Positions 10,501 through 59,225 of a stretch of DNA of 64,000 bases are shown here, one piece after another. The notes below the pieces were generated by a model, which ran no database searches, had not been told where the DNA came from, and was given only the letters and a program-made list of their open reading frames with translations. Origin of the DNA: Yuukianura sp. NJ FZ-2021 (taxonomy: Eukaryota); contig CM102287.1 in assembly GCA_046563655.1 (NCBI GenBank), positions 2,604,001 to 2,668,000 on the forward strand, in the 5' to 3' direction. A program made the translations under genes and the position numbers. Position 1 is the first letter of the stretch, and each line of letters opens with the position of its first letter.

Positions 10501-10804
10501 AACAAAAGTTTTTCAAAAAGTTTAGAAGATTTTAGAAACAAGTTTTTTAAAAAACTTTTTCCAAAAAGTGTCAATCACAAAATACTAAACAGTTTTATAC
10601 AAAAGTGAAATGTGAAACCCGCAACCTCCAATTTTTCAATTCTCCTAATTTTGTTTTCAAACTCTCCACTCACCTGGAATTGAAATTCAACTTTTTAAAA
10701 ACTTTTTGAAAAGTTTGGTGTGAACAACTTTTTAAAAAAAGTGAGCAAGTTTTAAAAATGTTTTCTTTTGTGTCTTGGCATGGAAGAAAGTAAGTCAAGT
10801 GAAC

Positions 10805-13800
10805 ATGGGTTCCTCTGGGTTTCTCTGTTTGACTTTCCTATTGTTCCTCCCTGCAGTCTTCAGTGGACAGCCACATTGTTCGTGGCTTCCGGCCCCACCA
10901 AGCCCCACCAAACTTTCACTCAAGTGCGAACTCCGGAAACTCACTGTAGATTTTTTGAATTACACCGTCCCACCACCAACTTCCGACCAAATCAAAGCCA
11001 CCTCCGACGTCTCTCTACTTTGCAACGCTCAACTTCTGTTCCAAAGTTTTTTCGATTCCAGCCTTCCGATTTTCCGATTTCAAAATTTGGAGTCCCTTGA
11101 AGTCGAAAATTGCAAAATCCGAAAAATCGAACCACTTCTACTGTCCAAATTTGGATTTCTGAAGAGATTGGTCCTCCACAGTCACAATGGTGATTGGAGT
11201 GGGGCGGTGGGGCTTGAAGTGGCTCAAGGTGGGTTCGATGGCCTGGTGGGGCTCAAGTGGCTCGATTTGGCCCACAATAACATTTGGACTTTACCGGAAA
11301 ACTTGTTTTGTGGACTTGGTTCTCTGGAGAGTCTTATTTTGAGTTGGAACAAATTAACTCAAGTGTCATTGACCAATCAGGAGACAGAAAAGTGCCCATT
11401 GTGTGAATCACTTGTGAATTTGGACTTGGCTGAAAATTCAATTCGGACAATTGGGGAAAACAGTTTTGGAAATTTGAAAAACTTGAAAAAGTTAAAACTT
11501 GAGAGAAACGCGATTGGTCAATTTGAAAACAGAGCGCTGATTGGTTTAAATCAATTGCAACTGCTGAATTTATCCAGTAATAGAATTGCATCACTTCCCC
11601 AAAATCTGTTTCAAAATAATCAACTTTTGCAAGTTTTGGATTTGGGTAAGTTTCAAAAAACTTTCACTTTTTAAAACTTGAAAATTCGATTTTTTTTTTA
11701 AATTGGTGAATTTTTGGGTGAACTACGATTTTCAAATTTTTTTTATAGGAAACAACTTAATAGCGGAATTAAATGGAGCAGAATTCAGCGCCTTGGAAAA
11801 TTTGAGACAACTTAATCTCCAATCAAACAGAATTCGGTTTATTTCAAACTCAACTTTTTTGAATCTCCCGCGTCTCGAAATTTTAGTTCTCGAAAACAAC
11901 CAATTAGAAACCATCGACGCACAACTTTTTATCGCGCAGACGCAGTTGCGACATTTAGATTTGTCGCGGAATCGTCTAACGGCACTCCATTCTTCACTTT
12001 TTCAAAATATATTTCAACTGCGCCAACTTTATTTAGACTACAACCAACTACGTCGAATCGAAGATCCTACTTTTCAGAGCAATTCAAATTTAAAAGACCT
12101 TGGACTTGCCGCCAACTTACTTTCTGAAGTACCCAGGGCCCTTAACTATGCTTCAGGACTGGGGGCCCTTGAAAGCCTTGACCTCGGTGAAAACCGGATT
12201 ACACAAGTATCCAACGACTCTTTTAAATTTCAAGGTCACGTCTACGGCCTTCGCCTCGTTGGAAACCGGCTAACTGAAATTCCGGCCGGGTTTTGCTCAT
12301 CCCTAAAAAAACTGCATGTTTTGAATTTGTCCCAAAACCGAATTCAGAAAATTTCAAGTTCGGCTTTCACAGGATGCCCGGATTTGAAGGCTCTGCGGCT
12401 CGACCGAAACGATTTAGAGGAATTACCGCCCCTTTTAGCTCCGCAACTTCCATCTTTACTCTGGTTGAATGTTTCGGAAAACCGAATTCGGAGAACAAAT
12501 TTTTACGATTTTCCGACAACTACCGAATGGCTGGATTTGAGCCACAACAGACTCGTTTTTCTCGGCGGTGTTTCGACTTCAGTGTCCTTGATGAATAAGG
12601 GCTTCAAGGGCCCTGTCCAGTACAATCTGCGTGTGCTGGACATTTCATTTAACAATCTGACTCATCTCGACTCCAGCACAATTCTACCGAAACTGGAAAC
12701 ACTTCGTGTCAATTTTAATCAATTACGCTCTGTTGCATCCGATACTTTTGGAAGGGCCCTGAGACTTAGAAGGGTTGAACTAATCGGAAATCAATTGAAT
12801 TCGCTCCCTCTGTCATCCCTTAGACTTCCCTTGGATGGACAGGAGGGTGACTTTTCGGCTGATTTGTCAGAAAATCGGAAAACTTCTGCTGATTTCTCAG
12901 AAAATCAGAAAATTTCGGCTGAATCTGAAGGAAATCGGAACTCTTCGGCTGATTTTCCAGGAGATCGGAAAACTTCGGCTGATTTTCCAGGAAATCGGAA
13001 AACTTCGGTTGATTTTCCAGGAAATCGGAAAACTCCGGTTGAAGTCCTCCTAGGCGGGAATCCTTTTGTGTGTGACTGTTCCATGGAGTGGTTGACTTCG
13101 ACCGGACTTGGACCGATGTACCCACGGGTCGTTGACCTGCAGCAGATAAAGTGCAGATCAGTGATTTCTGGAGGAACAAAGGAACTGATAGCCCTTCCGG
13201 ACATGAATCCAACTGACTTCCTCTGTCCCTACTCTGCCCATTGTTTTGCCCTGTGTCAATGCTGTGACTTTGAAGCCTGTGACTGTGCCCAGTTCTGTCC
13301 AGACAACTGCACTTGTTATCACGACGCTTCCTGGACAGCCAACATCGTCCAATGCTCTGGATTAGCACAAACTACTCTCCCTTCCAGAATACCCATGGAC
13401 GCTTCTCAGATTTTACTCGACGGAAACAATTTCAGAGAATTAGGCAGCCACATCTTCATTGGCAAGAGAAACGTTCGTGTTCTCTTTTTAAACAACTCGG
13501 GCCTTGAAACCATTCGCAACAAAACTTTTAACGGGCTGAGGGCCCTTGAAGTCCTCCGACTCGATTCCAACTTTTTGCAAGTTTTAAATGGTCATGAGTT
13601 TGCAGATTTGCCAAATCTAGAACAACTTTATTTGCAAAACAATTTAATCTCTAGTATTGCTCCAAATACTTTTGCAAATTTGAGGGCCCTGCAAATCCTC
13701 AGAATTGACGGAAATCGTCTGACGGAATTTGCAATTTGGGATTTAAGTGCCAATTTCAATTTGAATCAACTCAGAATCTCTCAAAATCCTTGGTCCTGTT

Positions 13801-15470
13801 CATGTCAATTTCTTATTCCGCTGAGAACATGGATTTCGTCCAAGATAGACAAAGAAGATGAGTCTGTCGTGATGGATTACGAATTGGCATCCTGTCAACT
13901 CATCCCCCCTCACCCCGCCCCCACAAGTACCCCCGATGGGGGGTCGTCAAGGGCCCCCTCTGATGGGGGGACTTGGACCCTCCCCCTTAACTCTGCATGT
14001 TCTGGACATGGGCAGGGAGATATTACGACATACTCTGAAAATGGAATTCTGGAAGATGAAAATGAAAAAATGGCAATTCATCACTCGCAACATGAAATTT
14101 CAAAAAGTTTCAAAAAATTTGAAATTTCAAATTTCGCAGCAGGAGAGCGTGGAACGCCTGACGAATCGGCAGAATCGGGGATTTCAGGAAAAGCGTTTTG
14201 GACTTTCACTTTTGCCGTTTCAGCCATTTTGGTCGTAATTTTCATAATTGTGGTGGTCACTAGAATCAAAATTTTTGAAAAACTGAATTTCAGTTTTTTT
14301 GGAATTGTGCAAAATCGGAGTCGTGTCGGATCGGCGGAGAAAGTTGGCGAGGATTCGTCTCAGTTTTTGTCAGATCCAGAAGATACTAAATTATTTGACG
14401 CCTACTTTCTCTATAATGACAGTGACGAGGATCTGGTGACACACAAAATCACTCCGAATCTGGAACTTTCTCGTCTTTTGCTGCATTATCGCGATTTGTG
14501 TCCTGGAGAACTTCCTGGACAATTTCCTGGACAAGGACGGAGTGACTTGGCCTGGAACCCTGACATGACCTTAAGTGCAGCCGAAGTGTCCAGAGCAATT
14601 GTCATTGTCTTGTCCAAATGTTTTCTGGAACAAGAACTTTCAAATTCAGTTTCCCGCTTGGCTGTTCAATTAGTAATTCATCGATTCAGTTCCAAAGTCA
14701 TTTTCATTCTGATTCCACCGTTGGATTCAACATTTACTTTTCCAGCTTTTTTTCCTGGACTAAAATTGTCTAGAACGACCGTTCTGGACTTTCTGGATGC
14801 CGACTTCTGGCCAAAGTTGAGACTTCGGCTGCCCGGAGGCGATGCTGCGCAGGCGCAGAGAATCCAGCTCCAAGTTCCAGTATACTCGCAGTACCATCGC
14901 AACATTACGCCATATCAACTTCAAGTACCCCATGCACCTATCTACCAAGGGACCATCGACTTCAGTCCAAGTACCCCCCACCCTTACTACTCCGCTTCAC
15001 CCGAACCCACTTGGCGGAGACCCTGCCCCACCATTGAACCCACCTACAATACTTCGTTTGCCGAAAATTTCAAGTTCCACCAACAACAGATTCAGCAGAG
15101 CCACCAAGGTGGCACAAATCCAAGGAATTCAAGGAGAAATGTTGTGCCTACAAGTGCCCTACCGGAAAATCAGCCCCACCGCCAGTATCGTCCTATGGTT
15201 CGAGCTGCCCCACCACAATCTAGAAATCTGCCCCACCAAACTGCTTCTCCAAACAGCCCCACCCACTGCTCCACCACTGACAGTGGGAATGTCAATGGAA
15301 GTTGCAGTAGTGATGAACTGGAAAATGAACATGTCTATTCAACATTGGATTCTCCGCTGCAGTCGCCAAACGATTTCGAACTTATCCGAGGATTGGGCAA
15401 CCCCCATTCTGAGCCCCACCAAGACCCACCAAGCCCCGCCCCACCAAAACGCACCATGTATTTTGTATAA
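10805..15470 (+). CDS. Long Toll-family receptor (Tollo/Toll-6/7-like), about 1520 aa; exons 10805-11645 and 11749-15470
   Basis: Signal peptide MGSSGFLCLTFLLFLPAVFS and many LRRs. LRRCT (NPFVCDCSMEWL) is followed by the long-Toll Cys cluster ([39 protein letters not shown]), a second LRR block with NPWSCSC, a TM segment (FWTFTFAVSAILVVIFIIVVV) and a TIR domain (KLFDAYFLY, LHYRDL, FWPKLR). A phase-1 GT..AG intron at 11646-11748 joins the two ORFs in frame (LDLG|NNL). Confidence 0.93.
12855..13040 (+). repeat. Coding minisatellite, about 6 x 30 bp (SADFPGNRKT)
   Basis: The unit TCGGCTGATTTTCCAGGAAATCGGAAAACT is repeated in frame just before the LRRCT of Toll 1. Confidence 0.9.
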
Positions 15471-22400: not shown

Positions 22401-24478
22401 GTTACAACCTAATTCTGCTACGCTGTAAATCTAATACACTCAGATTTTAAAACTCAACCGTGGCGGAGTAAAGACAAATCGCGTGCGAAAGCATTTCAAC
22501 AAAAACCGCCAATTGAGACAAAAGTTTAAAAAAAAAATTGTAACAAAAATTGAGAAATTTGAAATTTTTCTCAATTTCAGAGTTTAAAATCTAAAAATTT
22601 TTGTTCTCTAGGCCATACAAGGTCACTGGCTGGAGAAAATCAATGTCTGTTTTGCAAAAACTTTCTTTTTTGCAATTTTTTGTGTAGTCAAGTGGGAATT
22701 TTCTGCGAGATTTGTTCCTTTTCGCTGAGAGCTGAAGATGGTCTGCACTTTTTCGTGCTTTTCCTCTCTTTTGTGCTTCCAATCAACTTTCTCCTGATTT
22801 CTCCCTCCATAATTCATGTCTTCCACTCCAACTCTTGGCGGAACGAGTGATAAATTGTCTCGAATCTTCTGCTGCGCTCCTGATGAGACAAACTTCATAA
22901 AATCCTCATCAACCCTTGGAAGAAACAAAGTCACGTCGAACAGAAGAAGCGAAGAAAGTGTAATAAGTGACACCATTGCACTCGCTCAACACAAGTTCAC
23001 ACTTCCCCAGTGTCAAAAATAACACGAAACTACAAAACACACGTTCAAGTGACAAAGTTAGGCTAACCTTGGAGTTAGCCTAACCTGCCACTGGATTCAA
23101 TTGATGATCCAGTCTGTACCTTGTCACTTCCTAACAGCCTGCTCCTGCCAATGTCAACATTTAAACCCAACTAACACCGAAAAGCTCAGATTACGGAAAA
23201 ATTTCCAGAAAAAAAACTACTTTGCAATTTCCACCACAGACAATACACGCAAAGTACGATTCACGCCAATGACAATACATGCCAAGAAAAATTCTAAATT
23301 TACTCAAAATCGGCGAAAAAATACAGAAAAGCGGAGAATGATTCAAATGGAGAAAATTTACCTTGGAGGAAAAAAGTGTTTTGCAATTTACGCCAATTCA
23401 AATTCACGCCAATGACAATTCACGCGAATATAAATTCACCTTAAAACAGTGTAAATTTCATTAAATTCATTAGAATCGGCGAAGAAACGAGTAAAAAGGA
23501 AAATACTTAAAATGTATTGAAAAAAAAAAGTGGGTAAAATTTACTTTGGAGGAGACGAGTATTTACGGCCGAGAAAAAGTCGAAAATTTACGTCGTGTTT
23601 TGATTGTCGTCAATTTTGTTCAATTAGTCCAAAAATTTTAGTTTGAGCTCGTTCCAAGTTTAGCTTTTTGAAAGTTGAGCTTTTTCTTGGAAATTGGTGT
23701 GTAATCACTCTATTTTGTGTAGGATTTTTACACCGTAATTTTGAGTTGTTGGTTACTCACCCCTCAATTTCCATTTGGTTTTAAGTACTGTGTGTTTTTT
23801 AGAAAAAGAACAAGGACTTTTTTAATGCAATTTGAGTAGAAAAGGGCTGCTTTGAGGCTTTGTTGACAAGGAGTTAGGGTAAGTTAAGTGCGTTCTAAGC
23901 GTCTCTCGTTATGTTTTCTCAATTTTATTGTGAATGTGTCCTCCTCTGGTCATGATTCTTGTTTTTGTAACCAGGATTTGGACAGGTAACGTCTTCCCAC
24001 AGTTACGTAATTTACGACACAGTCTAGGCGGATCCTGGAACCAGAATGAAAGATTTACTTATTTGTTCAGACTTTTCTGACTTTGGCAAAAAATGGAATT
24101 GACTTGAGAGGAATGTCTCTGGAAATGTTAGGCTAAGCTTTAGGATTAGCAGGTTAGGAAGTAACAGTTACTAAGCTAAGAAAAGTAGAATTTTTAAAAT
24201 TAGACACACTCTGAGTACAGAGAGAGAGAGGCCAAAAGACAAAGTCAATTTAAATACCACACGAAAATAGAACTTTAGACACACTTCTGACAAATTTTTA
24301 AATCAAGAAAATTTCAACTTTCACCAAGACAAAATTTTTGAATGAAAGTTTTTTGTAATAAAAGAAAAGAGAGAAAACTTGATTCGTCGGAAATTCTGGC
24401 AGCAGCGCAGCGCAGAATTGTCGAAGCAAAGTTTTTAAAAGTTTTCAAAAATTATTGCTGTTGGACGGTTTCTGCGGG

Positions 24479-24492
24479 AGGTCAAGAGGTCA
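24479..24492 (+). promoter_or_regulatory. AGGTCA-AG-AGGTCA (DR2-type nuclear-receptor-like element) upstream of cluster gene 1
   Basis: The identical 14-mer also precedes gene 2 (about 26807), gene 3 (about 28024) and gene 4 (about 29311), each about 20-25 bp before a 5'-UTR intron donor. Function is inferred. Confidence 0.45.
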
Positions 24493-24641
24493 CGCTTGCC
24501 CAACTTTGAAGTATGTAATTCCTAAATTTCTAAGCTTCTGTTCATGTTTTTTTATTAACTTTTAATATTTTTGTGTCGTAGATCGATACCGTCGGGTCGT
24601 TTCGGTTCGGAATCGTGTCGGTTCGGATCATTGTTGGAAGA

Positions 24642-25550
24642 ATGAAGCTGCTCGGTGCTTTTCTTGCCGTCATCTGCTTTAGCAGCAGTGTCCAATCAAT
24701 GCAAAAAGAATCTGTGTTCAATAAAGACTCAATTGAAGAAGCGGCTTTTTATGAGGGTGATCTTGGTTGTGGGAAGCGAGAGGTGTACTCTAAACAGAAG
24801 AAGTGGATGAAAGCACAGAAGAGTGACTCTGGCTTTTTCGGGAAATTCAATCAAACAGTTTACTTGAACAAAATTTGGCCGACTGCTGAAGATCTGACCA
24901 AAGAATGTTGTGAATGTTGTGACAAGGCCAAGGACCAAAAGTGGGATAAAGATGTCACCGTCCTGACGAAGTGTAATGAGGAAAGGATCAAGGAGATCGT
25001 GGCAAAGGGAGTCGAGATGGACCGTGCTAAATCTGGAGCGGCGACATTGGATTTCAATGTCGCCGTGACCTTGACCTTGGCGACCGTTCTTGGAGGAAGA
25101 GACAACACTAACGCAAAGGTCACCGCTTTCCTGCTCGTCTTCTGCTGGATCTCAGGCAGCAGTGCCCAGCAGCGAGAGAATTTGTTTCCGGTAGGAAGTG
25201 GAGGTTGGCAGGCCGATGTGAACGCTAGACAAGCCTGCAGCGGCGGCAACCCCAAGTACTTTGAAAATACTAAGCGAGAGGTTGAAGCGTCTCCAGAATT
25301 TCCTGCTGGCTTCCCATCCAAAAACGACTTGATTACCAAAATCCTGCCGACTGCTGAATATCTCGTCAAGGAATGCTGTGATGGTAAGGAATTCAGCAAA
25401 TGTGACGATGCCAAGGTCAAGCAAATTATACAAAGTCGACTAGGAAGTTCAGCCACTTTTTCTACCAACAACGTCGCTTCAACTTCCAAACAAAGTGGAA
25501 TCGCTGGAATCGCTGCTCTTCTTGGAGTAGCAGCAATCAACTTTTTCTGA
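24642..25550 (+). CDS. Cluster gene 1: 302-aa secreted, probably GPI-anchored protein with two homologous Cys domains (A+B)
   Basis: Signal peptide MKLLGAFLAVICFSSSVQS. Domain A is GCGK...KIWPTAEDLTKECC...TKC. A double hydrophobic linker follows. Domain B is ACSGG...KILPTAEYLVKECCDG...SKC. The C-terminus is a Ser/Thr spacer plus the hydrophobic tail GIAGIAALLGVAAINFF*. Likely 5'-UTR intron at about 24511-24581. Confidence 0.8.
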   Translation: MKLLGAFLAVICFSSSVQSMQKESVFNKDSIEEAAFYEGDLGCGKREVYSKQKKWMKAQKSDSGFFGKFNQTVYLNKIWPTAEDLTKECCECCDKAKDQKWDKDVTVLTKCNEERIKEIVAKGVEMDRAKSGAATLDFNVAVTLTLATVLGGRDNTNAKVTAFLLVFCWISGSSAQQRENLFPVGSGGWQADVNARQACSGGNPKYFENTKREVEASPEFPAGFPSKNDLITKILPTAEYLVKECCDGKEFSKCDDAKVKQIIQSRLGSSATFSTNNVASTSKQSGIAGIAALLGVAAINFF

Positions 25551-25734
25551 GATTCCTCAAACACAAAATATTATTTCAATATAATTTACACTAAAAACTG
25601 AAATCTAAATTTTCAAAAATTCTAAGAACTTATGAGAAAAATAAACTTCCATAAATCCATTTGAATTTTGAGCTGAAATTTTCAGGACTTATTTTGGAGT
25701 GATCAGATTTTGTTCAAATTAAGGAGGGATAGGA

Positions 25735-25983
25735 GGGATCCCCTAAAAGGCGGAACGCGGAAAAGGCGGAAAGCCGCGCACTATACGAGGAAAAGGCGGA
25801 TTACCGCGCACTATACGTTTAGGTTAGTTAGGTTAGGTTAGGAAAACCTAACCTAGCCGCGCACTATACGCACTATACGCACTATTTTCCTCGTATAGTG
25901 CGCGGTAATCCGCCTTTTCCTCGTATAGTGCGCGGCTTTCCGCCTTTTCCGCCTTTTCCGCGTTCCGCCTTTTAGGGGATCCC
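25735..25983. mobile_element. 249-bp foldback MITE, Mutator(MULE)-like, with a TTAGG-repeat core
   Basis: TIRs of about 85-90 bp beginning GGGATCCCCTAAAAGGCGGAACGCGG, built of sub-repeats. Perfect 9-bp TSD GGGATAGGA at 25726-25734 and 25984-25992. The centre reads TTAGGTTAGTTAGGTTAGGTTAGG-AAAA-CCTAACCTA. Confidence 0.9.
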
Positions 25984-26965
25984 GGGATAGGAGGCAGCGT
26001 TTGTTTACGATTTGGTGTCAGCTATTGCCGTTAGTAACAAAGCAAAATCACTGCTCAAACTTGCAAAAGTCGGCACTGTTTCCAATGGTTGACAAACCAA
26101 AGTTTTTCGTAGGATAGTAATTCAAACAACCATGGGTTCAACAACAACTTTGTGCCCATGGAGACGGTTGAATTCAGTGCCGATATTTGCAAATTGTTGA
26201 ATAATGTCAGAATTACATCTGTTTTGTCTTATAACTTTTTTATTATAAGACCTAAAAATGCGTTTGAGGTGTCTAAAAATCCGAAAGACCATGGCACATA
26301 AGTTATATTTACCAAATTCCCGAATTTTTGTATCATAACAGGCTTAGAAAAAAATAAACGTTGTATGCAATTTTTAACCTTATTCCAGAACAAAAAGGCA
26401 AATTCTGAGAAATATAACTTATTCTACTGATAATAACGAATTTTTAGAGTCCTCGTACACATTTCTACGTTATTCCTGTGAATACTTATAAGGCCCTAAA
26501 GTTAATTAATTTGAGCCGAAACGAGACTCACCGTTGCCATGTGTGATTCCTTCTTAAACCCGATTTTTTTAGAATTTAGTGTAAAACCAAATTTTTTACG
26601 ATTTATGATTTTTACGAATTTAAGAAAAAGTAACACTCCATGATAACCTGATTTGAACTTTGAAGTGAAATTTTTGTTTAAAGAACAAACAATTTGAGAA
26701 ACTATTCACTCAAAACTTCTGTCGTCAGTTTGAAACACTTGTAGTTTGGATCACGTAAGAAAGTGGTCTTCAAAAGCTGCTCTTGTGCAATTTACGTTTC
26801 TGGAGGAGGTCAAGAGGTCACGCTTGCCCTACTTTGAAGTAATTCCTAAATTTCTAAGCTCCTGTGCATGTTTTTTGTTAACTTTTAATAATTTTGTGTC
26901 GTAGATCGGAAACCGTCGGGTCGTTTCGGTTCGGAATCGTGTCGGTTCCGATCATTGTTGGAAGA

Positions 26966-27513
26966 ATGAAGCTGATCGGTGCTTTTGTTGCCGTTGTCTG
27001 CTTCTGCAGCAGCATCGGCGAAACAATGCAAAGTAAACTGCCGCAGTACCCTAAAGGCGCAATGGAAAACGCGGCTCTTCACGAGGGTGATCTTGGTTGT
27101 GGGAAACCGGAAGTGTACGCAAAAGAGATGAAAGAGATGAAATCACATCCGGATGACCCTTCCTATTTTCCGAGATACAAAACAGCAGACTATTTGGGCA
27201 AAATTTGGCCGACTGCTGAGGATCTGATCAAGGAATGTTGTAACAAGAGCGAAACGTGGAGTCATGATTACACCGTCTTGACGAAGTGTACGACTGAAAG
27301 GAGATCGCGGAGAAGGGGGTCAAGATGAACCGTGCTCCTCCTGGATCTGCATCTGGAGCGGCGACATTGAATGCCGCCTGGGTTGGGACCTTGAATTTGG
27401 CGACCGTTTTTGGGGGAAGAGACAACACTAACGCAAAGGTCACCGCTGTCCTACAAAATGGAATCGCTGTAATCGCTACTCTTCTTGGAGCAGCAGCAAT
27501 CAACTTCTTCTAA
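26966..27513 (+). pseudogene. Cluster gene 2: domain-A-only paralogue with a frameshift (ORF 26966-27328, 120 aa; ancestral tail continues in another frame to 27513)
   Basis: Signal peptide plus HEGDLGCGK...KIWPTAEDLIKECC...VLTKC. Relative to gene 1, 7 nt (ATCAAGG) are missing at about 27300. It may be a pseudogene or a secreted truncated form. Confidence 0.7.
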
Positions 27514-28193
27514 AAATTCTTATACACAAAAATTATTTTTATACACTTTATTACGCTGAAAACCGATTTACAAATGTTCAAATATGTTATGAACTTTCGA
27601 AAAAACAAAACTCAAATTAACAACTCGATTTGAATTTTAAAATTGAAATTTTCAACACTCTGGAGTGATCAGATTTTACTAAAAATTAAAATTTTACTAA
27701 AAGTAAATTATTACTTACGTTATTATAATTATTAGTAAGTAAATTATTTACTAAGTAGTCTCAATTTTTCTAGAATTTATTCTAAAACCAAAATTTTTAC
27801 GATTTACGATTATTACGAATTTACGGAAAAATAAAATAAAAGTAAAACTTCATGACAACCTGAGTTAAACTATGAAGTGAAATTTTTGTTTAAAGAACAA
27901 ACAATTTGAGAAACCATTTTCACTCAAAAATTCTGTCGCCAGTTTCAACCACTTTGCAGTTTGGACACGGAAGAAAGCGGTCTTCTTCAAAAGTTGCTCT
28001 TGTGGAATTTGTGTTTCTCGAGGAGGTCAAGAGGTCACGGACTAATCATCTTCAACTTTGGTAACAAACAACACTGTTAATACAAATGTGTAACTTTCAT
28101 TTATGTTGTTCTCTACTAAAGTGCCGATCTCTGTCTCTAGATCGGTTACGCTCGTTTCTGTTCGTGCTGCGTGTTCCGATCATTGTGGGCAGA

Positions 28194-28667
28194 ATGAAGG
28201 TGATCGTTCCTGTTTTTGGGGGAAGAGACAACACTAACGCAAAGGTGATCGCTGTGCTGCTTCTGCTTTGTGCTGATTTGTGCTGGGGTGCAGACTTGTT
28301 TCCGCCATCAAGTAAAGGTTGGCAGGTCCTAGCCAATGCTAAGGTTTTCTGCGGCAACCCTTCAGGGCTTGACACTCAGAAGAAGTCGTATAACGCGCTC
28401 CCTGACGGTCCAGCGAAGGACGACTGGAATAAGAACATTCTGCCGGCTACGGAATTCGTCATCAAGGAATGCTGTGATGGTAAGAGCTTGAGCAAATGCG
28501 ACGATGCCAAAATCAAGCAACATATCGAAAGTCGTCTCGGAAGTTCAGCCGATTCAACTAAACCCGCAACAGCCGATTCTGCTAAAGGCGTCGCTTCAAC
28601 TCCCAAACAAAATGGAATCGCTGTACTCGCTGCTCTTCTTGCAGCAGCAACAATCAACTTCTTCTAA
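28194..28667 (+). CDS. Cluster gene 3: domain-B-only paralogue, 157 aa, predicted GPI-anchored
   Basis: MKVIVPVFGGRDNTNAK is followed by the signal-like VIAVLLLLCADLCWG, then FCG...ILPATEFVIKECCDGKSLSKC and the hydrophobic tail GIAVLAALLAAATINFF*. Confidence 0.8.
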   Translation: MKVIVPVFGGRDNTNAKVIAVLLLLCADLCWGADLFPPSSKGWQVLANAKVFCGNPSGLDTQKKSYNALPDGPAKDDWNKNILPATEFVIKECCDGKSLSKCDDAKIKQHIESRLGSSADSTKPATADSAKGVASTPKQNGIAVLAALLAAATINFF

Positions 28668-29474: not shown

Positions 29475-29765
29475 ATGAAGTTGGTTGTGTGTGCTGTCGT
29501 TGTGCTGTGCTGCTTGGCCAGCATCCATGGCCAGTCTACTGCTCCGCCTGGTGGTGAAGGGACGGCGGGCCCTACGATGGCCCCGGGCAGTGGCACCACT
29601 GCTGCCGGAGGAGGTGGAATGGACGGCACTCCTGCGCCGGGTGAAGGTGCTGGTTCTGGAAGTGGATCTGGATCGTTCGGGGTCACTTTCAAACCGAATC
29701 TGTTCCTGACTTCCGTCGCTGTGCTGGGAGCAGCAGTCATTGGGGCCAACGTCAAGTCCATCTAA
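29475..29765 (+). CDS. Cluster gene 4: 96-aa Gly/Thr/Pro/Ala-rich small protein, predicted GPI-anchored
   Basis: Signal peptide MKLVVCAVVVLCCLASIHG, a low-complexity core and a C-terminal hydrophobic tail. 5'-UTR intron 29348-29420 (GTAAGT..TTTTAG). Same GAATGAAG start context as genes 1-3. Confidence 0.8.
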   Translation: MKLVVCAVVVLCCLASIHGQSTAPPGGEGTAGPTMAPGSGTTAAGGGGMDGTPAPGEGAGSGSGSGSFGVTFKPNLFLTSVAVLGAAVIGANVKSI

Positions 29766-32867: not shown

Positions 32868-35156
32868 ATGCTGTCAGTCATTGATGAAAACAAGAAGCGT
32901 AAGCGACGTCGACGATGTCCTGTTCCGAAGTCCACGTTTACGACATTCATGGACGAAGGGTTCATGCACTTCAGAGCTGGTCGCTACCGCAAGGCTCTCT
33001 TCTGCTACGATCGGGTAAGGGTCATTGACCTCCAGGTCAAAGGTCAAATCAAGGTCAAAGGTCAAGGTCAAATTTTTGAATCCACTGCTTTTCAGGCCCT
33101 GGAGCTGAATGCCACCCACCGTGGGGCCTTGGTGGCTCGAAGTCAATGTTATTTGAAGCTGGGCGATGCCAGTTCAGCGCTTCGCGACGCTGAAACGTCG
33201 TTTGACCCCAAGAATCCCTACATCCTTGGTCTTTACCAATACGCTGAAGCGCTGTTCAGCCTCGGCAGCTTCGAAAAGGCGCTGATCGCTTTTAGCTACG
33301 GTGTGAGAACACGGCGAGACATGGATGGATTTAGAATCGGAGTTCAGAAGTCCATTGAAGCCATTACGCAGGCCATTGGAGACAAAGCGGCCACGCAAAT
33401 TGAAGATTTCTTTGACATCATTTCTCTCGTGGACGAGCTTGAAGCACTCAAAAACGGTAAGGTCAAAGGCCAAAATTGAAAAAAAGCAAAAACTAGAGAT
33501 TAAAATTCAAAATTTTTTGGAAATAGCAAAACAGGAGCATTGTTGCATTCGGCCGAATCCGGAAGAGGAGGAGATGAATGCGAAGCGTCTGAAGTTGAAA
33601 CCGCCGTCGAAGGCGCGAAGTGGTTGGGTGGCACGAGAAGTGTTGGGTCAAATGTTTTCAGACAAAGACTATTTGACGAAGTTCATGCAAAGAGCGGACA
33701 TTCAAAGTGAACATGGATCTGGTCAAGCTTTACGCAGAAACGCAACGGAAGCTCTCGGATTTCTGAAAATCCGGGAAGAATTTTGGCGTGCCCAGAATCC
33801 AATGTATTCTCGCAAATACGGGCTCAACTTTAACAACAACGTAAGTTCAACATAAAAAAATCACACAAGAATTTCAACCCCCAAAAAATTTCCGAAAACT
33901 TTTTTCAAAATGTTCTAAAATTTTCAATTTGAAATTTTCAGATGGTCCTCCAATATGAAGAGCAGGAACGTCTGCGTCAAGAGCAAAGTCGACGAATCAA
34001 AATGGACGCTGCAGAGGGCGCCATCGTCAAAAATTTATCGCTCATTCAACATGGTAAAAATCCACGAATTTTAAAATTGTCAAAGAAAATTTTAAATTCT
34101 TCAAAAATTTCTTGAAATCACAAAATTTTCTCTTAAATTTTTTCTAGCTCTGGCGATTGGTCGGCCACATGACTGTAAGCACTATGTAAAATTGAAATTA
34201 ATCGATTACTAATTACTAATCGATTAATTTCATGATTTTAAGGTACTTTGGAGTGCGAGAGAACGTTGCGTCAAATGAAGAAAATCACGAAAACTGTTTT
34301 GCCGCGTCGCACTGAATTTGTGTGTCAAATTTACCACTACAAAGGCCTAGCTCTCATTGAACAAAAAAAATATGACGAGGCTGTAAACGCTTTTCAAGTT
34401 GAATTTGACCTTGCTACGGCAGAGTAAGAATTTTCCAAAATTTCAAAACTTAAAATCTGACTTTTAAATTTTGACCTTTGACCTCAGGAAAATGACTCCA
34501 GAGAGGTCACGTGCCTTGGACTGCTTGGCGAAATGCTATGCCTACAAGAAGTGTTGGGCTGAAGCTGCTGACATTTGGGAATCTCGTCTTTCTCTTTTAA
34601 AAGATCATGTCGAAAGAGCTTACGTGTTTCACGAAATTGGTCGGTGCTATTTTGCCATGGCTCGGACTGACATGTCAAAGTAAGTCACGAGGTCAAAGGT
34701 CACGAGGTCACTTTTTGAATCTCGTTTTTGTTTTTAGGCATTTTGCAATTCAGAGTTTGGAAGAAGCCGAGAAGATTAGCGACGATATCTGGAGTGCAAA
34801 TGCCCACATTTTATTGGCTCAAATCGATAGTAAGAAATTAAATTCTGAGACCTCAAAATTTGAAATTTGGAATTCATTTAGTGACTAAAATTTTGTTTTT
34901 TGAAATTTCAGTTAAGCTGATGCACTTGGAATCAGCGGCAAGTCACTTTGAAAAAGCAGAGAAGCTTCTTCGTGTTACGCAGGACAAGACGATGTTGTCG
35001 CTGATCGCTGAATCTCTGCAGTGCTTGAAAGTTTGGATTGAAAAACGCGAAAAACTGGAACCGGAAGCCACAGAGACGAATTTGTCCGACGAGGAAGCTG
35101 AAACACACTTCGTACAAGCTGAAAAACCGAAAGCTCCAAAACCACCGTCAGCTTAA
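32868..35156 (+). CDS. TTC25: Tetratricopeptide repeat protein 25 / outer dynein arm docking complex subunit 4; exons 32868-33014, 33096-33456, 33527-33840, 33942-34053, 34148-34174, 34243-34423, 34488-34679, 34738-34828, 34912-35156
   Basis: N-terminal TPRs (STF..EG..ALVARSQCYLKLGD..ALRDAE..AEALFSLGSFEKAL..FRIGVQKSIEAI), the central motifs LGQMFSDKDYL and FWRAQNPMYSR, and C-terminal TPRs match the TTC25 pattern. All GT-AG introns keep the frame. Confidence 0.88.
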
Positions 35157-41950: not shown

Positions 41951-44900
41951 TTATACAAAGTACATGTGACCTGATGACGGACTTTCTGGAAATTGGATTG
42001 ACGCACTTCCGTCATGACTCTGACGACGCATGGCGACATTGGCGACATTGTCGCCGGTGACATTCAGAGGTCCTGGCGACTGCAGCGGAGTGTCCAGCGT
42101 CGAGTAAAGATGCTCCTCAGACGCCAAACTGCCCAAAGTATTTGTACTGTCAGACAGATTTTGTTCTGTCAGAGGCGGATAAGTACAGGAGATCGTTGAA
42201 ACTGAATTCTGATGTTCATGGGAATGGTCAATCCCGTGGGGTTGAACCCCGATCTGAAGAACCCCATGAACCCCGGAGCTTTGAACCCCGTGGGGATGAC
42301 CTTGACCCCCGCAGAACATGATTGGCTGATGGACAGAAGTTGACAACATTCCAGCGTCATTGAATCCCTGACTCACTCGTCGATTCGCCGGAACAGCGTG
42401 ATTTTGGTGGTGACAGTGTTGATGGTGGGACCAGATCGGCGGCTTCTGACCGCCAAGTCCATGGTGGGGCCAAGGCGGCTGCAGATTTTGGTGGGGCCTT
42501 TGGTGGCTCAAGATTTCGTGGACGGAGGGTAACGTTTGCGGATGGTGCTGGACTTGAGCCACTTCACTTTTCGATGGAAACGGCAGGAGTCTGCGCAGTT
42601 TTGACTTGAACTGCGGATCTGTCCATTCCAGAAGATTCGGAGTTCCGGAAGTCAGACTTTTCTGGCGATTCAGACTTTTAGTGGCCCCAGACCGATGCAT
42701 CGGCGAATCAGCCGATGCTGCATTCAGTTCCGGGAAGATTGTCACCAGAGACGACAGATTTTGTACGGAAAGAGGCGGGAGTAAGATGAAGATGAGTTTC
42801 TTTTGATGTCGACTTAGCGTTAATTGAAGTGCTCTTCTGAAATCTCCGTTATTTGTCCACTCTCGCTCCAGAAAAGTTTTGGACAAAAGAATCACAATGC
42901 GCTTACTCGCTTCTCCAGCACTCTCCATCATCTCTGGATTCCAAGCATTCTCCAGTCCCACACACAAGTCTCGATGAAAACAGAGGCGAAGGCGATTCTT
43001 GTCTTCCTCCAGTTCTGGAATTAGCTTTTCTCTTAACAGCTCCTCATCTTCCCAATTGTACACAAAATAAGCGTCAAACAGCTTCTCACTCTCAGATTCT
43101 TCCTTGTTTCTGATTGGTCGATTCATAGATCCAGCATTACTTGCCTGGAATCCAGACTTTTTTCGGAGGAATCCGAAAATTCCGACTTTTCGTCTCCCCT
43201 GACACAAAAGAGAAAGTTCTTTCCGGAAAATCAAAATTAGTCCAATAATCAGCAGAATTCCGACGATCGAGCACAAAACTATTGCCAGCATCACGGAAGT
43301 ATCGAAGTCCATTGTGCCAGCATCTCCAGCATTCCTGTCCGCCAGCACATTTTGAGCAGCATTCCTGCCCGGCAGCACATTTTGATCAAAATTTTGTGTC
43401 CCAACTGCCTGTTTTTCTGGAATTTGTGCCAGAGCGTTGTTCACACCATCATCTACTATTGGGATTCTGTCCAACTCATTATTACAAATTGAGTCGAGTG
43501 TCTGCTGTATCTGAGGAAAAGTGTGGCCCGAGAGTGTCTTCGGCTGATTCTGAGGAATAGTATGACCCTCTACAAATATTTGGCACTTGGCCAAATTGAA
43601 ATCTGCCACAATTTTAGTAGGTTTTGATTCTATCCAAGAGCGAAATGGTGTCACGAAATCACATTCACAAGACCAAGGGTTCCCTGAAATCCAGAGACCC
43701 TTCAAGTACCCGTTTCCACTCAATTCCCAAACATTAAAATCAACCAATCGATTTCCATCAATTCTTAAGTCCTCCAGAAATTTCAAATCTGCAAAAGTCT
43801 CCGAAGCTATGGATTCCAGTCGATTGTTCTGGAGAAACAATGTTTTAAGGGCCCCCAGCCCCTTGAACTCCCAGCCATCCAGGGATGTTAGTAAGTTGTT
43901 TTGGAGGTGGAGGACTTCAAGGGCTCCGAGTCCATTGAACGTCTTGTTCCTGATTGTTTCTAGTCGAGTGGCGTTGAGATACAGGCTTCTGAGGTTTCTC
44001 TTGCCAATGAAGACGTGACTGCCTAATTCTCTGATTCCGTTGCCATCTAATCGGATTTCGGTGGCTTCCATTGGAATTCTGGGAGGGAGGACTTGGTAGT
44101 CCAAATTGGAGCACTTTATAATGTTGACAGACCAAACGTTGTCATGGAAACAGGAACAGTTCAAGGGACAGGAAAAGTGACAGTCACAAAAGTCAAAGTC
44201 ACAGCAGTTGCACAAAGGGAGACACTGGCTGGTGTAGGGACACAAAAACTGGGAGGGACTTAGGTCCTGGATGGGAACTAGGGCACTGGAAGCATTTGTA
44301 CTGGCAGTATTTGTGCTGGCAGTATTTTGTGTTGTACATTTGACTGAGTCCATGTCCATGAGGTGCGGATGTTGACGAAGAATGGCCAGTTGATATTGAT
44401 TGAGACGCGGCAGCCATTCCATTGAACAGTCACAGCGAAACGGATTTCCAGCGAGGAAAAGCTCTGGAAGCGATCGAGACGCTGGAACGCTCGGGAAAGT
44501 GAAAGCTGACAGCGAAATCACTTCCAGTTCATTTCCGATCTGACACAAAAAAAAAATATTGTCTTTACGTCTTCAATTTTTCAGAATTTCTTCAAAAAAA
44601 CAACAAAAAACAAAAAAAAATTCATCATTTTTGAGCTAATTTATAAAAATCTTACCAATTCAACGCGCCTGAGGTGCGTAGAGCGACTAAAAGTTCCAGG
44701 CGCAACAGATTTTATCAAATTGTGGTTGATTCTGAGCGTTTCCAGCGATTCTGGCACAGTGTCAATGTCAATTTTAGTTAGTCTGTTGTGCGACGCGTCT
44801 AAGACGCGTAATTGACTTTTCACGGCGCGCATTTGTCCGCGCCCTTCATTTCCCAGGAACTCCAACAAATTGTAACTCAAATCCAGCCATTCTACTGTTT

Positions 44901-46704
44901 TTGGTAAAACTTGGTTAAAATCTACTCTTCGAATCCTGTTTTCCGAGATGTTGAGCCACAAAAGCGTGGGAAGTTTTTCAAGGGATGCTGGCAGTACTTC
45001 TAAATTGTTCGTATCCAGTCGAAGGGCCCTTAATTCCGGACATCCCGAGAAGGCACTTGCAGAAACCCGGTTGATCCGATTTTGTGCTAGGTTGAGTACC
45101 CTTAGACGCTTGAGTGCCCTGCAGAATCCAGGGGGTACTTCATTGATCCGATTATCAACCAGTCTCAGTCCATAAACCTCCTCGAGTCCACTAAACGACT
45201 CATTCGTTACTCTTCCGATTCTGTTTTCTCCTAAATCTAAACTTCGCAAGTATTTCAATCCTGTTTGAACAGCAGTCGGCACTTCACGTAAAATGTTGCC
45301 GGAGAGTCCAATATCCTGCAGATTTGTGCAATTGTCAAAAGCTCCGGGGGCCACGGAACCAATTTTGTTGTGGTCCAGCAATAAAGTCTGGAGGAGACCG
45401 GTGGTCGCCAGGAGGCGACCGTCGATGGTCGCCAGTCGATTTTTGGACAGATCCAGAAGTTGGAGATTTGTGAGTTGATGGAATGCCTGGGGCGCGATGG
45501 TTTCAATTCGATTGGAGTCCAAATGGAGAGCTTTGAGGTTTTTGAGAGATCCAAAGATTTGATCATCGATTAGAACAAGTTGGTTAAAAGAGAGACTTAA
45601 AAAAACCAAGCTGGAGAGATTCTGGAAAATGTCGGTTTTTATCCAGAGACTTGTGAGTTTATTTCTGGACAAATCTAGGTTGACCAAGTTAGTTAATCCA
45701 GAAAACACCGCTGGAGAAAGTGCAGTGAGGGAGTTGTTCTGGAGAAAAAGTTGTTTCAAGGCGACATTTGAGCTAAAAATTGACGGTGGCAGAGCGACGA
45801 GTCGGTTTGAACTCAAATCCAATGAAATTAGTTCACTGAGTCCAGAAAATGCTGAATCCTGGAGCTCTTCGATCAAATTGTGCTGGATTTGCAGGCGGGT
45901 GAGGGCGGGTAGACCCGCCAAAGCGGAGTTCCCTACCCGCCGGATTGCATTTTTAGAAATATCTAGATTTTGCAGGTTGAGGACACAAGCACTTTGGGAA
46001 ATACTGCCAGTAGTACTGGAAATGCTGGAAATACTGGCAGCATCGGAGCCAAACTCTTCTGGAAGATCAATGAGCCGATTAGAACTGAGATTAAGTTTGA
46101 GCAAATTAGTCAAGTCGGAACAAAAAAGTTGATCTGGAAGACTCCAGACGTTGGAGAGACTTAAGTCCAGCGAAGTAAGGGCCGTGAGCCCTTGAAAGCA
46201 ATCCGGCTCCAACTCTAATCCGATTGAAGGGCTCCAGTCACTATTCCGAGTTCGGATCGTAAGAGCCCTTAAGGCTCCGAAATTCATGAAAATCCCTCGG
46301 GGGACCCTTCGGATTTTGCAGAAATCGAAGGACACTGTGTTGAGATGAACGAGTTCAGAAAAACTTTGGTTGAGTCTCAAATGACTCTCGAAGTACAGTT
46401 TGTCACTACACTTGACATGGAGACTTGAAGTACCCTCCTTCTGGGAAGAACTGAAAGTGTAGTTCCAGAATTCAGTGTTAAGGGTACGCACGTTGCAGTT
46501 GAGGCCCTTAAGGTCACTTGACCTTTCGGAATTCTTAGTTGTGGACCAAACGCAGCCGTGACGACTGAGCTGTTCTGTTTTTTGAGAGTAGAAAGTGGCC
46601 TGAACTTGAGTAAAAAGTAAGATGATGACCGCGATTGTTGTGAAGTGACCTTGACCTTGACCTGGACACAATGCACCATTGTGGAAAAGGCGTTGTTGCT
46701 CCAT
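41951..46704 (-). CDS. Long Toll-family receptor (Tollo/Toll-6/7-like), about 1545 aa; exons 46704-44656 and 44539-41951
   Basis: Signal-like hydrophobic N-terminus, LRRs, NPFRCDCSMEWL, the Cys cluster FLCPYTSQCLPLCNCCDFDFCDC, a second LRR block with NPWSCEC, a TM segment (VMLAIVLCSIVGILLIIGLILIF) and a TIR domain (KLFDAYFVY, SKRIVILLSKTFLEREW). The phase-0 intron 44655-44540 gives RRVEL|IGN, collinear with Toll 1. Confidence 0.93.
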
Positions 46705-47034
46705 TTTTAGTTGATTTGATCCAGAACCAGTTTTACATTTCGTCTATTGTTCTTTCCACATCCTCTGATTCAAAATTGCTTTTTTCTTTTCAAAATTTTA
46801 TTGAAAGTGGAGTCTGTAAAACATAAGAAAGCCATTAGTCACTGCATAAGTTAACAAGAGAGCAATAAACTTCACAACATAAGACTTAAAAAGACAAGTG
46901 TCACTGTCACCTCTGAAACATGTCAAGGAACCTAAAGCCCCAGTGACACATCACAACTGACGTGACCCATGACAACTACCACACGCATCTTCACTCAAAT
47001 GCTAAAGAAATTCAAGAATTTCATCATTCTGACA

Positions 47035-57532: not shown

Positions 57533-59225
57533 ACAAAGTGAAGACTTTTATATACAAGTGACTTAATCAATTGAATTAATTAGTTTGTGGATTAATTGAA
57601 TTCAATGATACTCACATGACTCGGGGATTCTTGTGTTAAAGTTCTCTTTTGTATTATTTATGCTAAAAAGTGGATAAGAGTTAAAGTAAATTATGGAATC
57701 TATGAAATAAATCAAAAGTTAATTATAAGAATTCGCAAAAGTTAATTAGTTAATTACAGAGTTAATTAGCAAAATTAATGTGTCGAAACTTTAGATATAA
57801 AACAGATTTTGAATGGAAAAAGGACGCTTTTTATGAATGGATTCGAAAGAGTAAATTTTTTACGCGACGCTTCCTCCCTTAAAAACGTAAACGAAATTTA
57901 TGAATGAATTTGGAAGAGTCCATTTTTACTCTACCCTTCTTTCCCTCAAGAATCGTAGTAAAATTTTTATCAATGAACGTGGAAGAGTCCAGTTCAATTT
58001 ACGCGAGACTTCCTCTCCTCAACGTCCATTTTTTTATGAATGAAACTTAAAATTAAAATGAAATTTAATTTTGAAAATTTCTGATTACTGGTACTTCAAA
58101 ATTTTAATAATTCCAGTTTGAATTTTAGTAATTACGATTAATGTGTTAATGATCTTTGGTAAAATGGGTTTAAAACTCACTCTTATTCTTAGTTTACACA
58201 ATTAATTAGTTTAATTAATTAAAAGCAGAAGTCCTTACACAATGAAGCACATTATCAAGAACTCGATGTTCAAAATTTTAAGTTTCTTCAACATTTGAAT
58301 TTCAAATTTTAAACTCTAAGAAAAAGGACAAATGTCTCCACGGTTTCTATTTACAATCTCATAAAATATCAATCATTCCCAATCTCAATTCCTCAGTTTT
58401 TGTTTGTTTTGTAATTAACTAATTAGTTAATTAATTAAAATGACAAATTGGATGGTGATTAAAAGTGAATTAAAGTTAAAGACTAGTTTATGTGTAGCTC
58501 AACCCTAACTGTGTCCTTAGAAAGTGAAGAAGTTAGTTAAAATGGAGTTAATTAGTAATTAACATTGTAATTTCAATAAGTTTAAGTGAATTTGTTGTAA
58601 AGGAAAGCTCGATTTTGAAGTTAACTTTAATTACAATTAAGTTTTATAAGGTTAAGATTATTCTAAATTGTTAAACTTGAATGTTTTAGGATATGTTTGA
58701 AAACATGCTTTGATAAAAGTTGGTGAAAATCTCAATCAAATAAATTAGCTTCATAAAACAAGTGAAACGTGAATTAAATTATTTAGTTGTACTAATTATA
58801 ATTAAACTAGAATTACTTATAATTAACACAAAAACTAAATGCGGAATCGAAAAACCAAAACTTTTGATAAATATCACAGAAACGTTTGGGATAAAAACCA
58901 AAAACAAATTGTAACTTTACACATTTTCTACTTAAAACTATTTAAATTGAGGCTTAATTGATATTTAATGATTGATACTAATTATTTTAATTGTGCCAAA
59001 GTTTAATTTTGTAATTAACGTAGGGATTATGTTTTGGTATTGGTTGCAAAAACTCAGGCGATGGATAGGATACGTTTCAAACTCAAATGATATTCTCGTT
59101 CCGAGGCTCACGACGTGTGACCTGTGATATGTTCTTTCTTGACCTTTGACCTTGACTTCAAGAATAGGTCAATGACCTTGACCTCAGGAGAAAGTCAATG
59201 ACCTTGACCTTTGTCTCTTCCTTGT

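Follow-up and report, generated by a model that had tools for sequence, protein, structure and literature searches.

In textbook accounts of targeting to the endoplasmic reticulum (ER), a signal in the interior of a chain is inert behind an N-terminal one, signals for the attachment of a glycosylphosphatidylinositol (GPI) anchor stand at the C-terminus, and the exceptions are engineered or viral. In uPAR, a case of internal duplication, three tandem Ly6/uPAR domains are combined with one signal and one GPI signal. The gene described here, gene 1 of a small cluster in Yuukianura sp. NJ FZ-2021, shares with uPAR-type proteins the tandem small disulfide-braced domains set between one signal and one GPI-type signal, but it carries what look like relics of a signal and an anchor in its interior, which uPAR-type proteins lack, and their fold differs from the four-helix model obtained for gene 1. 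The window, i.e., the whole stretch of DNA that was analysed, comprises 64,000 nucleotides (nt) of contig CM102287.1 (NCBI GenBank assembly GCA_046563655.1, positions 2,604,001 to 2,668,000 of the forward strand), and all positions below are counted from its first letter. The reading favoured here, with a probability of about 0.45, is that the product of gene 1 is a single, uncut, tandem two-domain surface protein of the GPI type.

The systems that come closest are described in five reports. The closest analogue is the THA-HA chimera of Finidori et al. (1987), in which an N-terminal signal and a lumenal domain are followed by an interior signal of the same kind and a second domain; signal peptidase did not recognise the interior signal, which crossed the membrane without stopping transfer (PMC2114505). 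The chimera differs from gene 1 in that it is artificial, its units are identical, no hydrophobic run or polar loop precedes the interior signal, and the chain ends in a transmembrane anchor, not a GPI-type tail. A signal of Trypanosoma cruzi GP82 that had been moved to an internal position was left uncut by the account of Cordero et al. (2019), and extra residues ahead of the signal were tolerated (PMC6513831), the latter bearing on the N-terminus of gene 3 (see below). Perara and Lingappa (1985) reported cutting of an internal signal in the case where that signal initiated insertion (PMC2113988). For GPI signals, Caras (1991) described the fusion DAF-hGH, in which an internal GPI signal was processed at its normal site and its hydrophobic domain could be exchanged for a signal peptide (PMC2288913). 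This construct resembles gene 1 in having a GPI signal in mid-chain of a secretory protein with another folded domain after it; it is unlike gene 1 in being artificial and in using the proven DAF signal, whereas the run in gene 1 appears GPI-like by its sequence and is followed by a second hydrophobic run. In the bunyavirus envelope precursor GPC, internal signals are cut by signal peptidase (PMC7926653), from which gene 1 differs in being cellular, with a predicted intron in its 5′ untranslated region (UTR), in lying among arthropod genes and in having no segment of transmembrane strength in its interior.

Two homologous halves in one reading frame

The open reading frame (ORF) of gene 1 lies on the plus strand, with its ATG at 24642 and a stop codon at 25548-25550, and encodes 302 amino acids; every peptide quoted in an earlier, sequence-only reading of this DNA is present in it where that reading had placed it. 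From the N-terminus it comprises a signal peptide (SP1), domain A, a first internal run (run 1), the polar linker GGRDNTNAK, an internal signal-like run (SP2), domain B and a C-terminal GPI-type signal (Table 1). As rules of thumb, signal peptidase sites have small residues at positions -3 and -1, and in GPI signals the attachment residue and the second residue after it are small and precede a short polar spacer. Judged by eye against the latter, the C-terminus offers N-V-A or S-T-S followed by SKQS, and run 1 offers S-G-A followed by ATLDFN. After domain B comes NNVASTSKQSGIAGIAALLGVAAINFF and directly the stop codon, so that the hydrophobic GIAGIAALLGVAAINFF has no hydrophilic tail behind it.

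That A and B are homologous to each other, as the sequence-only reading had held, was borne out by several comparisons. BLASTP aligned residues 1-128 with residues 160-302 at E 1e-9 (33 of 117 positions identical), the alignment beginning inside both signal segments, and tblastn matched domain B of gene 1 to domain A of gene 2 at E 3.9e-9. When domains A of genes 1 and 2 (A1, A2) and domains B of genes 1 and 3 (B1, B3) were aligned four ways, one Cys, a Cys-Cys pair and the last Cys were invariant, together with the pattern I.P..E...KE around the pair. At the DNA level SP1 and SP2 aligned with a score of 27, against 14.6 +/- 2.1 in shuffles, and only 1 of 2000 shuffles equalled it. Since both this alignment and that of BLASTP span the signal segments, SP2 descends from a signal peptide; the resemblance to a cleavable signal that had been pointed out earlier is thereby given a basis in homology, and SP2 is also as hydrophobic as SP1 and keeps S and A at -3 and -1. 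Gene 1 would then have arisen by the in-frame joining of two homologous signal-domain units, an origin that these comparisons support in kind. The sequence-only reading had gone further and proposed the fusion of two ancestral tandem GPI-protein genes; the two units in one frame agree with this, but a former GPI tail in run 1 found no support in the DNA comparisons described below.

The frame is kept open by selection. Silent divergence between the paralogs amounts to 0.36 (A1-A2) and 0.50 (B1-B3), and of 5000 neutral simulation runs with 0.18 changes per site, 0.1% left the entire ORF open and 3.4% the linker with domain B, which argues that the frame through B has been maintained; the middle 47 codons alone stayed open by chance in 47% of the runs and are uninformative on selection. 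Since domain B contains no Met, it can be made only by read-through from A. Apart from a few conserved blocks the family evolves fast, the blocks being the linker (see below), the KECCDGK core, with an identical run of 23 nt, and the last 60 nt of the tail, which are 87-93% identical among genes 1-3 compared with 67-75% in the 3′ UTR. Judged from its sequence, gene 1 appears to be a real, selected and lineage-specific arthropod gene that is translated as one chain.

The sequence-only reading had not recognised the family, and every sequence and fold search made since agrees with it. An exhaustive HMMER search gave no hit at E <= 0.001 among 1,835,955,588 representatives, and none of the 3342 candidates of a word-indexed search proved to be a relative. 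No Pfam family was found (best DUF1389, E 0.029, 14.1 bits against a cutoff of 29.6), and the best match of a sequence profile in the PDB had E 0.037. In metagenomes, none of 214 pattern matches with a single protein was confirmed, and the exact 26-mer of the linker had no match; the ESM Atlas scored no higher than 0.81 for gene 3 and offered nothing usable for domain A, and a literature text search did not find the family's peptide motifs.

Structure prediction was more productive for domain B, for which AlphaFold, with four paralogous units aligned, gave a confident model (mean predicted local distance difference test score, pLDDT, 85.8; predicted template-modelling score, pTM, 0.81) with helices at 12-26, 31-41, 52-70 and 81-96. 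The model of the whole protein was poor (mean pLDDT 55.0, pTM 0.37), although two helical domains were still visible; in it domain A has helices at 28-44, 46-57, 71-89 and 113-125 with pLDDT values of 47-80 over these blocks, residues 126-179 lie below 50, and the linker, at 22-32, is a region on which the model is uninformative. Fold searches were made with domain B. Foldseek found no match in the PDB at E <= 0.001 (best 0.52), VIA-align against 48,161 chains stayed below Z 5 throughout (highest 4.8), within the noise for helical models, and the viral predicted structures of BFVD gave nothing at E <= 0.001. Because the alignments behind the models are shallow (3-4 paralogs), the four-helix fold is a lead, not a result; as modelled, B may be a new small four-helix, two-disulfide domain without detectable relatives.

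The interior runs, the linker and the fate of the chain

Hydrophobicity was followed with a rough, position-independent insertion scale and with that of Kyte and Doolittle, both of them crude. On the rough scale the best 11-mers of SP1 and SP2 sum to -2.37 and -2.16, and those of run 1 and the C-terminal tail to -0.80 and -0.69, i.e., SP2 is comparable to a true signal and run 1 to the true tail. All 19-residue insertion sums are positive (+4.2 to +6.1), those of the internal runs being +5.35 (GAATLDFNVAVTLTLATVL) and +6.08. On the Kyte-Doolittle scale the only 19-residue window of the whole protein that reaches at least 1.6, the level of a classical membrane helix, lies in the C-terminal tail, and none does so in residues 129-175; by this measure and by the insertion sum of +5.35, the segment ahead of SP2 falls short of a stop-transfer transmembrane helix. 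For these reasons the membrane hairpin that the sequence-only reading had envisaged, a stable pair of helices, is not predicted, neither internal run being of transmembrane strength.

The origin of run 1 was followed at the DNA level in 13 comparisons, none of which was convincing for either a former GPI tail or a translated 5′ UTR. When run 1 was compared with real C-terminal tails, 91, 783, 1798 and 1994 of 2000 shuffles scored as well, and for run 1 or the linker against the 5′ UTR the best of nine comparisons were equalled in 16 and 96 of 1000 shuffles. Because this similarity to the tails is not significant, the label “former GPI signal” rests on composition; the earlier description of run 1 as GPI-like holds for its hydrophobicity and is not supported for its descent.

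No identical stretch shared by the paralogs is longer than the linker between the runs, which is unchanged over 26 nt in genes 1-3 and over 33 nt between genes 1 and 2. The window contains exact copies of its 26-nt core at 25095, 27415 and 28221 and nowhere else (none expected), and when alignment columns were shuffled, identical runs of this kind arose 197 and 163 times in 20000 trials. With the amino acids held identical, about 5 silent sites are involved, and by a rough estimate their identity is only mildly surprising. Folding of the RNA at the linker was no better than that of shuffles (z -0.27, +1.30 and +0.96), which gives no sign of a hairpin there. The linker may have been conserved as a peptide loop with a function, through gene conversion over a short tract, or as a site of RNA-protein contact; as to the last, its ACUAAC resembles the STAR/SF1 motifs. 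Gene 3 has no other N-terminal signal than its own copy of the linker and the following run, which suggests that this combination is competent as a signal. The sequence-only reading had taken SP2 itself for the only N-terminal signal of gene 3; a homologous linker and run do serve there, but the segment is not identical and is preceded by a short extra hydrophobic stub.

In the favoured reading of a single uncut protein, the targeting, non-cleavage and anchoring that we infer would proceed as follows. SP1 would direct the chain to the ER and then be cut off, and the rest of the chain would enter the lumen, including the two short internal runs, which would be too weak for stop transfer. The interior signal, arriving within a chain whose translocation is under way, would for that reason stay uncut, the C-terminal signal would be exchanged for a GPI anchor, and the product would be two four-helix, disulfide-braced domains on the cell surface with a greasy, conserved hinge between them. 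The weakness of the internal runs, the uncut interior signal in the signal-HA-signal-HA chimera and the tail as the most membrane-like part of the protein all support this course. It has to face several observations that weigh against it: the linker is the most conserved stretch among the paralogs, for which a mere hinge would give no reason; SP2 has kept S at -3, A at -1 and the following QQ, along with full signal-like hydrophobicity, after long divergence; the homologous linker and run are the sole N-terminal signal of gene 3; domain A is followed by S-G-A, a spacer and a hydrophobic stretch that fit the GPI rule of thumb, and DAF-hGH is a case in which a GPI signal at an internal position was processed (PMC2288913); and the ratios of non-synonymous to synonymous change (dN/dS), at 0.80 and 0.68, do not fall significantly below 1 (Fisher p 0.42 and 0.10). 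Much of this would be expected if the ORF yielded two surface proteins, an alternative that we regard as somewhat unlikely. GPI transamidase might use the internal signal (around S130-G131-A132, with a spacer and VAVTLTLATVL), anchor A and release the rest, or the runs might insert as a hairpin with GGRDNTNAK in the cytosol, after which signal peptidase would cut at SSA/QQ; B would receive its own anchor from the C-terminal signal, and the internal GPI-like signal is a likelier route than signal peptidase alone. Cleavage is favoured by the match of run 1 to the true tail and of SP2 to the true signal, by the site retained at SSA/QQ, by a linker that is rich in turn formers with a net charge of +1, by the signal function apparent in gene 3, by the ability of a signal peptide to replace the hydrophobic part of an internal GPI signal (PMC2288913), by the cutting of an internal signal that itself starts insertion (PMC2113988) and by viral glycoprotein precursors whose internal signals are cut by signal peptidase (PMC7926653). 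Gene 1 has no membrane-strength segment ahead of its internal signal. Viral precursors have a true transmembrane anchor in that place. The interior signal of the HA chimera behind an N-terminal one stayed uncut (PMC2114505), which argues against cleavage at SSA/QQ; the internally moved signal of T. cruzi GP82 also stayed uncut (PMC6513831), and the paper listings searched yielded no natural cellular protein that gives two GPI-anchored products. In its fullest form the idea is of a polyprotein, encoded by an arthropod cell, from which the ER would make two surface proteins, each with a GPI anchor of its own, by means of an internal GPI signal and a signal peptide, with the hairpin held by the invariant GGRDNTNAK turn; this is unlikely. 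Of the polyprotein proposed in the sequence-only reading, the joining of two homologous signal-domain units in a single frame and the descent of SP2 from a signal peptide are supported, and the stable hairpin is not predicted.

An explanation at the level of the RNA, in which the linker is removed or used as a splice site and the ORF reading is not the protein, would make ACACTAACGCAAAG followed by GT a branch point and acceptor, with a 45-nt in-frame intron in gene 3 (AAG/GTGATC...AAAG/GT); in gene 1 the acceptor would serve alternative splicing or trans-splicing. It draws on a CTAAC followed by AG within the 26 nt identical in three genes, and on the donor AAG/GTGATC, found in gene 3 only, which agrees with 7 of 9 consensus positions and opens an in-frame segment lying between copies of a 10-nt direct repeat, AAGGTGATCG; excision there would leave a classic signal, MKVIAVLLLL.... 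Nine introns predicted from the sequence of the window (four in 5′ UTRs of the family, two in Toll genes, and three in a TPR gene) share a GTA donor, measure 66-116 nt, contain 7-13 T among their final 20 positions and have a G+C content of 0.21-0.42, whereas the gene 3 candidate begins GTGATC and is shorter and more G+C-rich than every one of them, and the end of the linker (CTAACGCAAAG followed by GT), although it resembles a branch point and acceptor, has a single T in its last 20 nt. For the AG at the linker (25117-25118 in gene 1), no in-frame donor above 5 of 9 consensus positions was found in genes 1 and 2 (range 2-5 of 9 in gene 1). Removal of the linker as an intron, which the sequence-only reading had itself considered, is thus disfavoured by donors, T tract and length unlike those of local introns. 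A transcript starting at the acceptor would have no AUG, as B lacks Met, and no stable RNA structure marks the linker. Hexapods, the group of the nearest named relatives of the Toll genes, are not known to trans-splice. A trans-spliced leader that donates the AUG was considered and set aside, the copepod leader-like sequences in a table passage of one report ending in AAG and not ATG (PMC4664967) and the taxon being hexapod-like by its Toll relatives. The explanation as a whole is very improbable, and so, to a slightly greater degree, is the proposal that gene 1 is a recent accidental chimera in decay or an assembly join. In genes 2 and 3 the linker occurs as a direct repeat at a distance of 806 nt, and a deletion or collapse between the two copies in such a pair of genes would give exactly this A-linker-B ORF; the mosaic nature of the cluster, the frameshift already present in gene 2 and the dN/dS of 0.68-0.80 would also fit. 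What speaks against it is a 302-codon frame still intact despite a silent divergence of 0.36-0.50 of A1 and B1 from A2 and B3, and the appearance of genes 2 (linker and VTAVL) and 3 (VPVF and linker) as deletion derivatives of a joined gene; a collapse in assembly is unlikely because the exact repeat shared is only 26-33 nt long.

The cluster and its surroundings

Gene 1 is followed on the same strand by three further genes, whose features are given with those of gene 1 in Table 1.

Table 1. Coordinates of the parts of gene 1 and of the genes that follow it in the window
Feature	Position	Strand	Remarks
GGAGGTCAAGAGGTCACG, AGGTCA direct repeat	24477..24494	+	spacing 2; putative promoter or short first exon
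Predicted 5′ UTR intron of gene 1	24511..24581	+	71 nt (GTATGT...GTCGTAG), read from sequence; layout as in genes 2-4, features like other predicted introns
SP1, N-terminal signal peptide MKLLGAFLAVICFSSSVQS	24642..24698	+	residues 1-19; holds the protein's most hydrophobic 11-mer; V at -3, S at -1
Domain A	24699..25025	+	residues 20-128; 6 Cys in gene 1; C..CC..C core in common with B
First internal run AKSGAATLDFNVAVTLTLATVL	25026..25091	+	residues 129-150; small residues S-G-A, spacer, 11-residue weakly hydrophobic stretch
Polar linker GGRDNTNAK	25092..25118	+	residues 151-159; 26-nt core 25095-25120 identical in genes 1-3
SP2, internal signal-like run VTAFLLVFCWISGSSA, then QQ	25119..25166	+	residues 160-175; S at -3, A at -1; SP1 homologue
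Domain B	25167..25466	+	residues 176-275; starts QQRENLF; 4 Cys, no Met, predicted four-helix fold
C-terminal GPI-type signal, NNVASTSKQS and GIAGIAALLGVAAINFF, plus stop codon	25467..25550	+	residues 276-302; hydrophobic run is the protein's end
Gene 2, signal and domain A	26966..27328	+	frameshifted by a 7-nt gap against gene 1; stop at 27326-27328
Gene 2, remainder in shifted frame	27325..27513	+	SGAATL..LATVF, GGRDNTNAK, VTAVL, straight to tail NGIAVIATLLGAAAINFF; domain B missing
Gene 3, MKVIVPVF, GGRDNTNAK, VIAVLLLLCADLCWG, domain B and GPI-type tail	28194..28667	+	domain A missing
Gene 4	29475..29765	+	unrelated protein of 96 amino acids; signal, Gly/Thr/Pro/Ala-rich middle, hydrophobic end

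Gene 2 retains the linker and the first five residues of SP2 and then jumps to the tail, and gene 3 retains the last residues of run 1 (VPVF) ahead of its linker. On the simplest reading of these remnants, an A-linker-B gene would be ancestral to genes 1-3, and genes 2 and 3 would each have lost one domain by deletion; the reverse, in which gene 1 was created by deletion between the linker copies of a gene 2/3-like pair, is possible. Gene 4 has no Pfam match. A motif, GAGGTCAAGAGGTCAC, stands upstream of all four genes (24477, 26805, 28022 and 29309, with at most 3 mismatches; 0.02 expected in the window), and each of them has a predicted 5′ UTR intron of 66-80 nt. Because gene 4 has the motif and the 5′ UTR intron layout of genes 1-3, a co-regulated cluster of small surface proteins is suggested. 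Upstream of the AGGTCA repeat, identity is 50% between genes 1 and 2 and 85% between genes 2 and 3, and from the repeat to the ATG it is 92-93% and 38-73%, respectively; by these values the cluster is a recombination mosaic with its breakpoint at the repeat (24477 / 26805 / 28022).

The strand opposite gene 1 has an ORF of 234 amino acids (24860-25564, minus strand) that overlaps the gene and shows no gene features; it is probably due to codon bias of the sense strand. In the spacer between genes 1 and 2 lies a near-perfect palindrome, or foldback, of 249 nt (25735-25983), with arms of 64 nt (98%) and 38 nt (100%), which may be a small inverted-repeat element and accounts for part of the longer spacing of these two genes. 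Additional copies of the family's 3′ end, 88% alike, are found at 26617-26706 and 27829-27918, in the spacers before genes 2 and 3, and look like remnants of lost family members. Upstream of the cluster, at 23209-23453, are arrays of a 16-nt unit (CAATTCACGCCAATGA-like).

The cluster is flanked by two Toll-type genes with LRR and TIR domains (10745-15470, plus strand, and 41951-46743, minus strand), each with one short intron. The ectodomain of the first contains an in-frame repeat of 30 nt in 6.3 copies (12854-13042). Their best named relatives are those of springtails (Folsomia, 42% over 63% of the query; Orchesella, Allacma), followed by insect Toll-6/7/18-wheeler. The window is metazoan, and we assign it to an arthropod, probably of a hexapod-like lineage with poor sampling. 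A tRNA-Leu(CAA) of 90 nt that ARAGORN called within a Toll ORF (42229-42318, minus strand) is probably false, as Rfam finds no tRNA there, and a scan of the window at Rfam gathering thresholds gave no match. The heptamer AAGGTCA occurs 58 times in the window, compared with 13.0 +/- 3.6 times after shuffling, and its copies often form short arrays and lie within introns (e.g., 33040-33070, 49629-49642 and 59147-59211). AGGTCA is the nuclear-receptor half-site, and the cluster motif is its direct repeat with spacing 2.

Implications for the family and for interior signals

As a natural and selected gene, gene 1 carries both kinds of signal, by resemblance, in its interior. If its product is simply uncut, the gene would represent an ordinary lineage-specific duplication with an odd hinge; if the product is cut in two, the gene would be a natural example of what has so far been built in the laboratory alone, and a parallel to viral envelope precursors. 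Genes 2 (A only) and 3 (B only, with the linker kept) are built-in deletion variants, and together with gene 1 would form a test case for the action of the translocon, signal peptidase and GPI transamidase on interior signals. The cluster also illustrates how recombination may reshuffle tandem arrays of surface-protein genes, and its genes 1-3 would constitute a lineage-specific tandem family of small surface proteins in which interior targeting signals appear to have been retained under selection.

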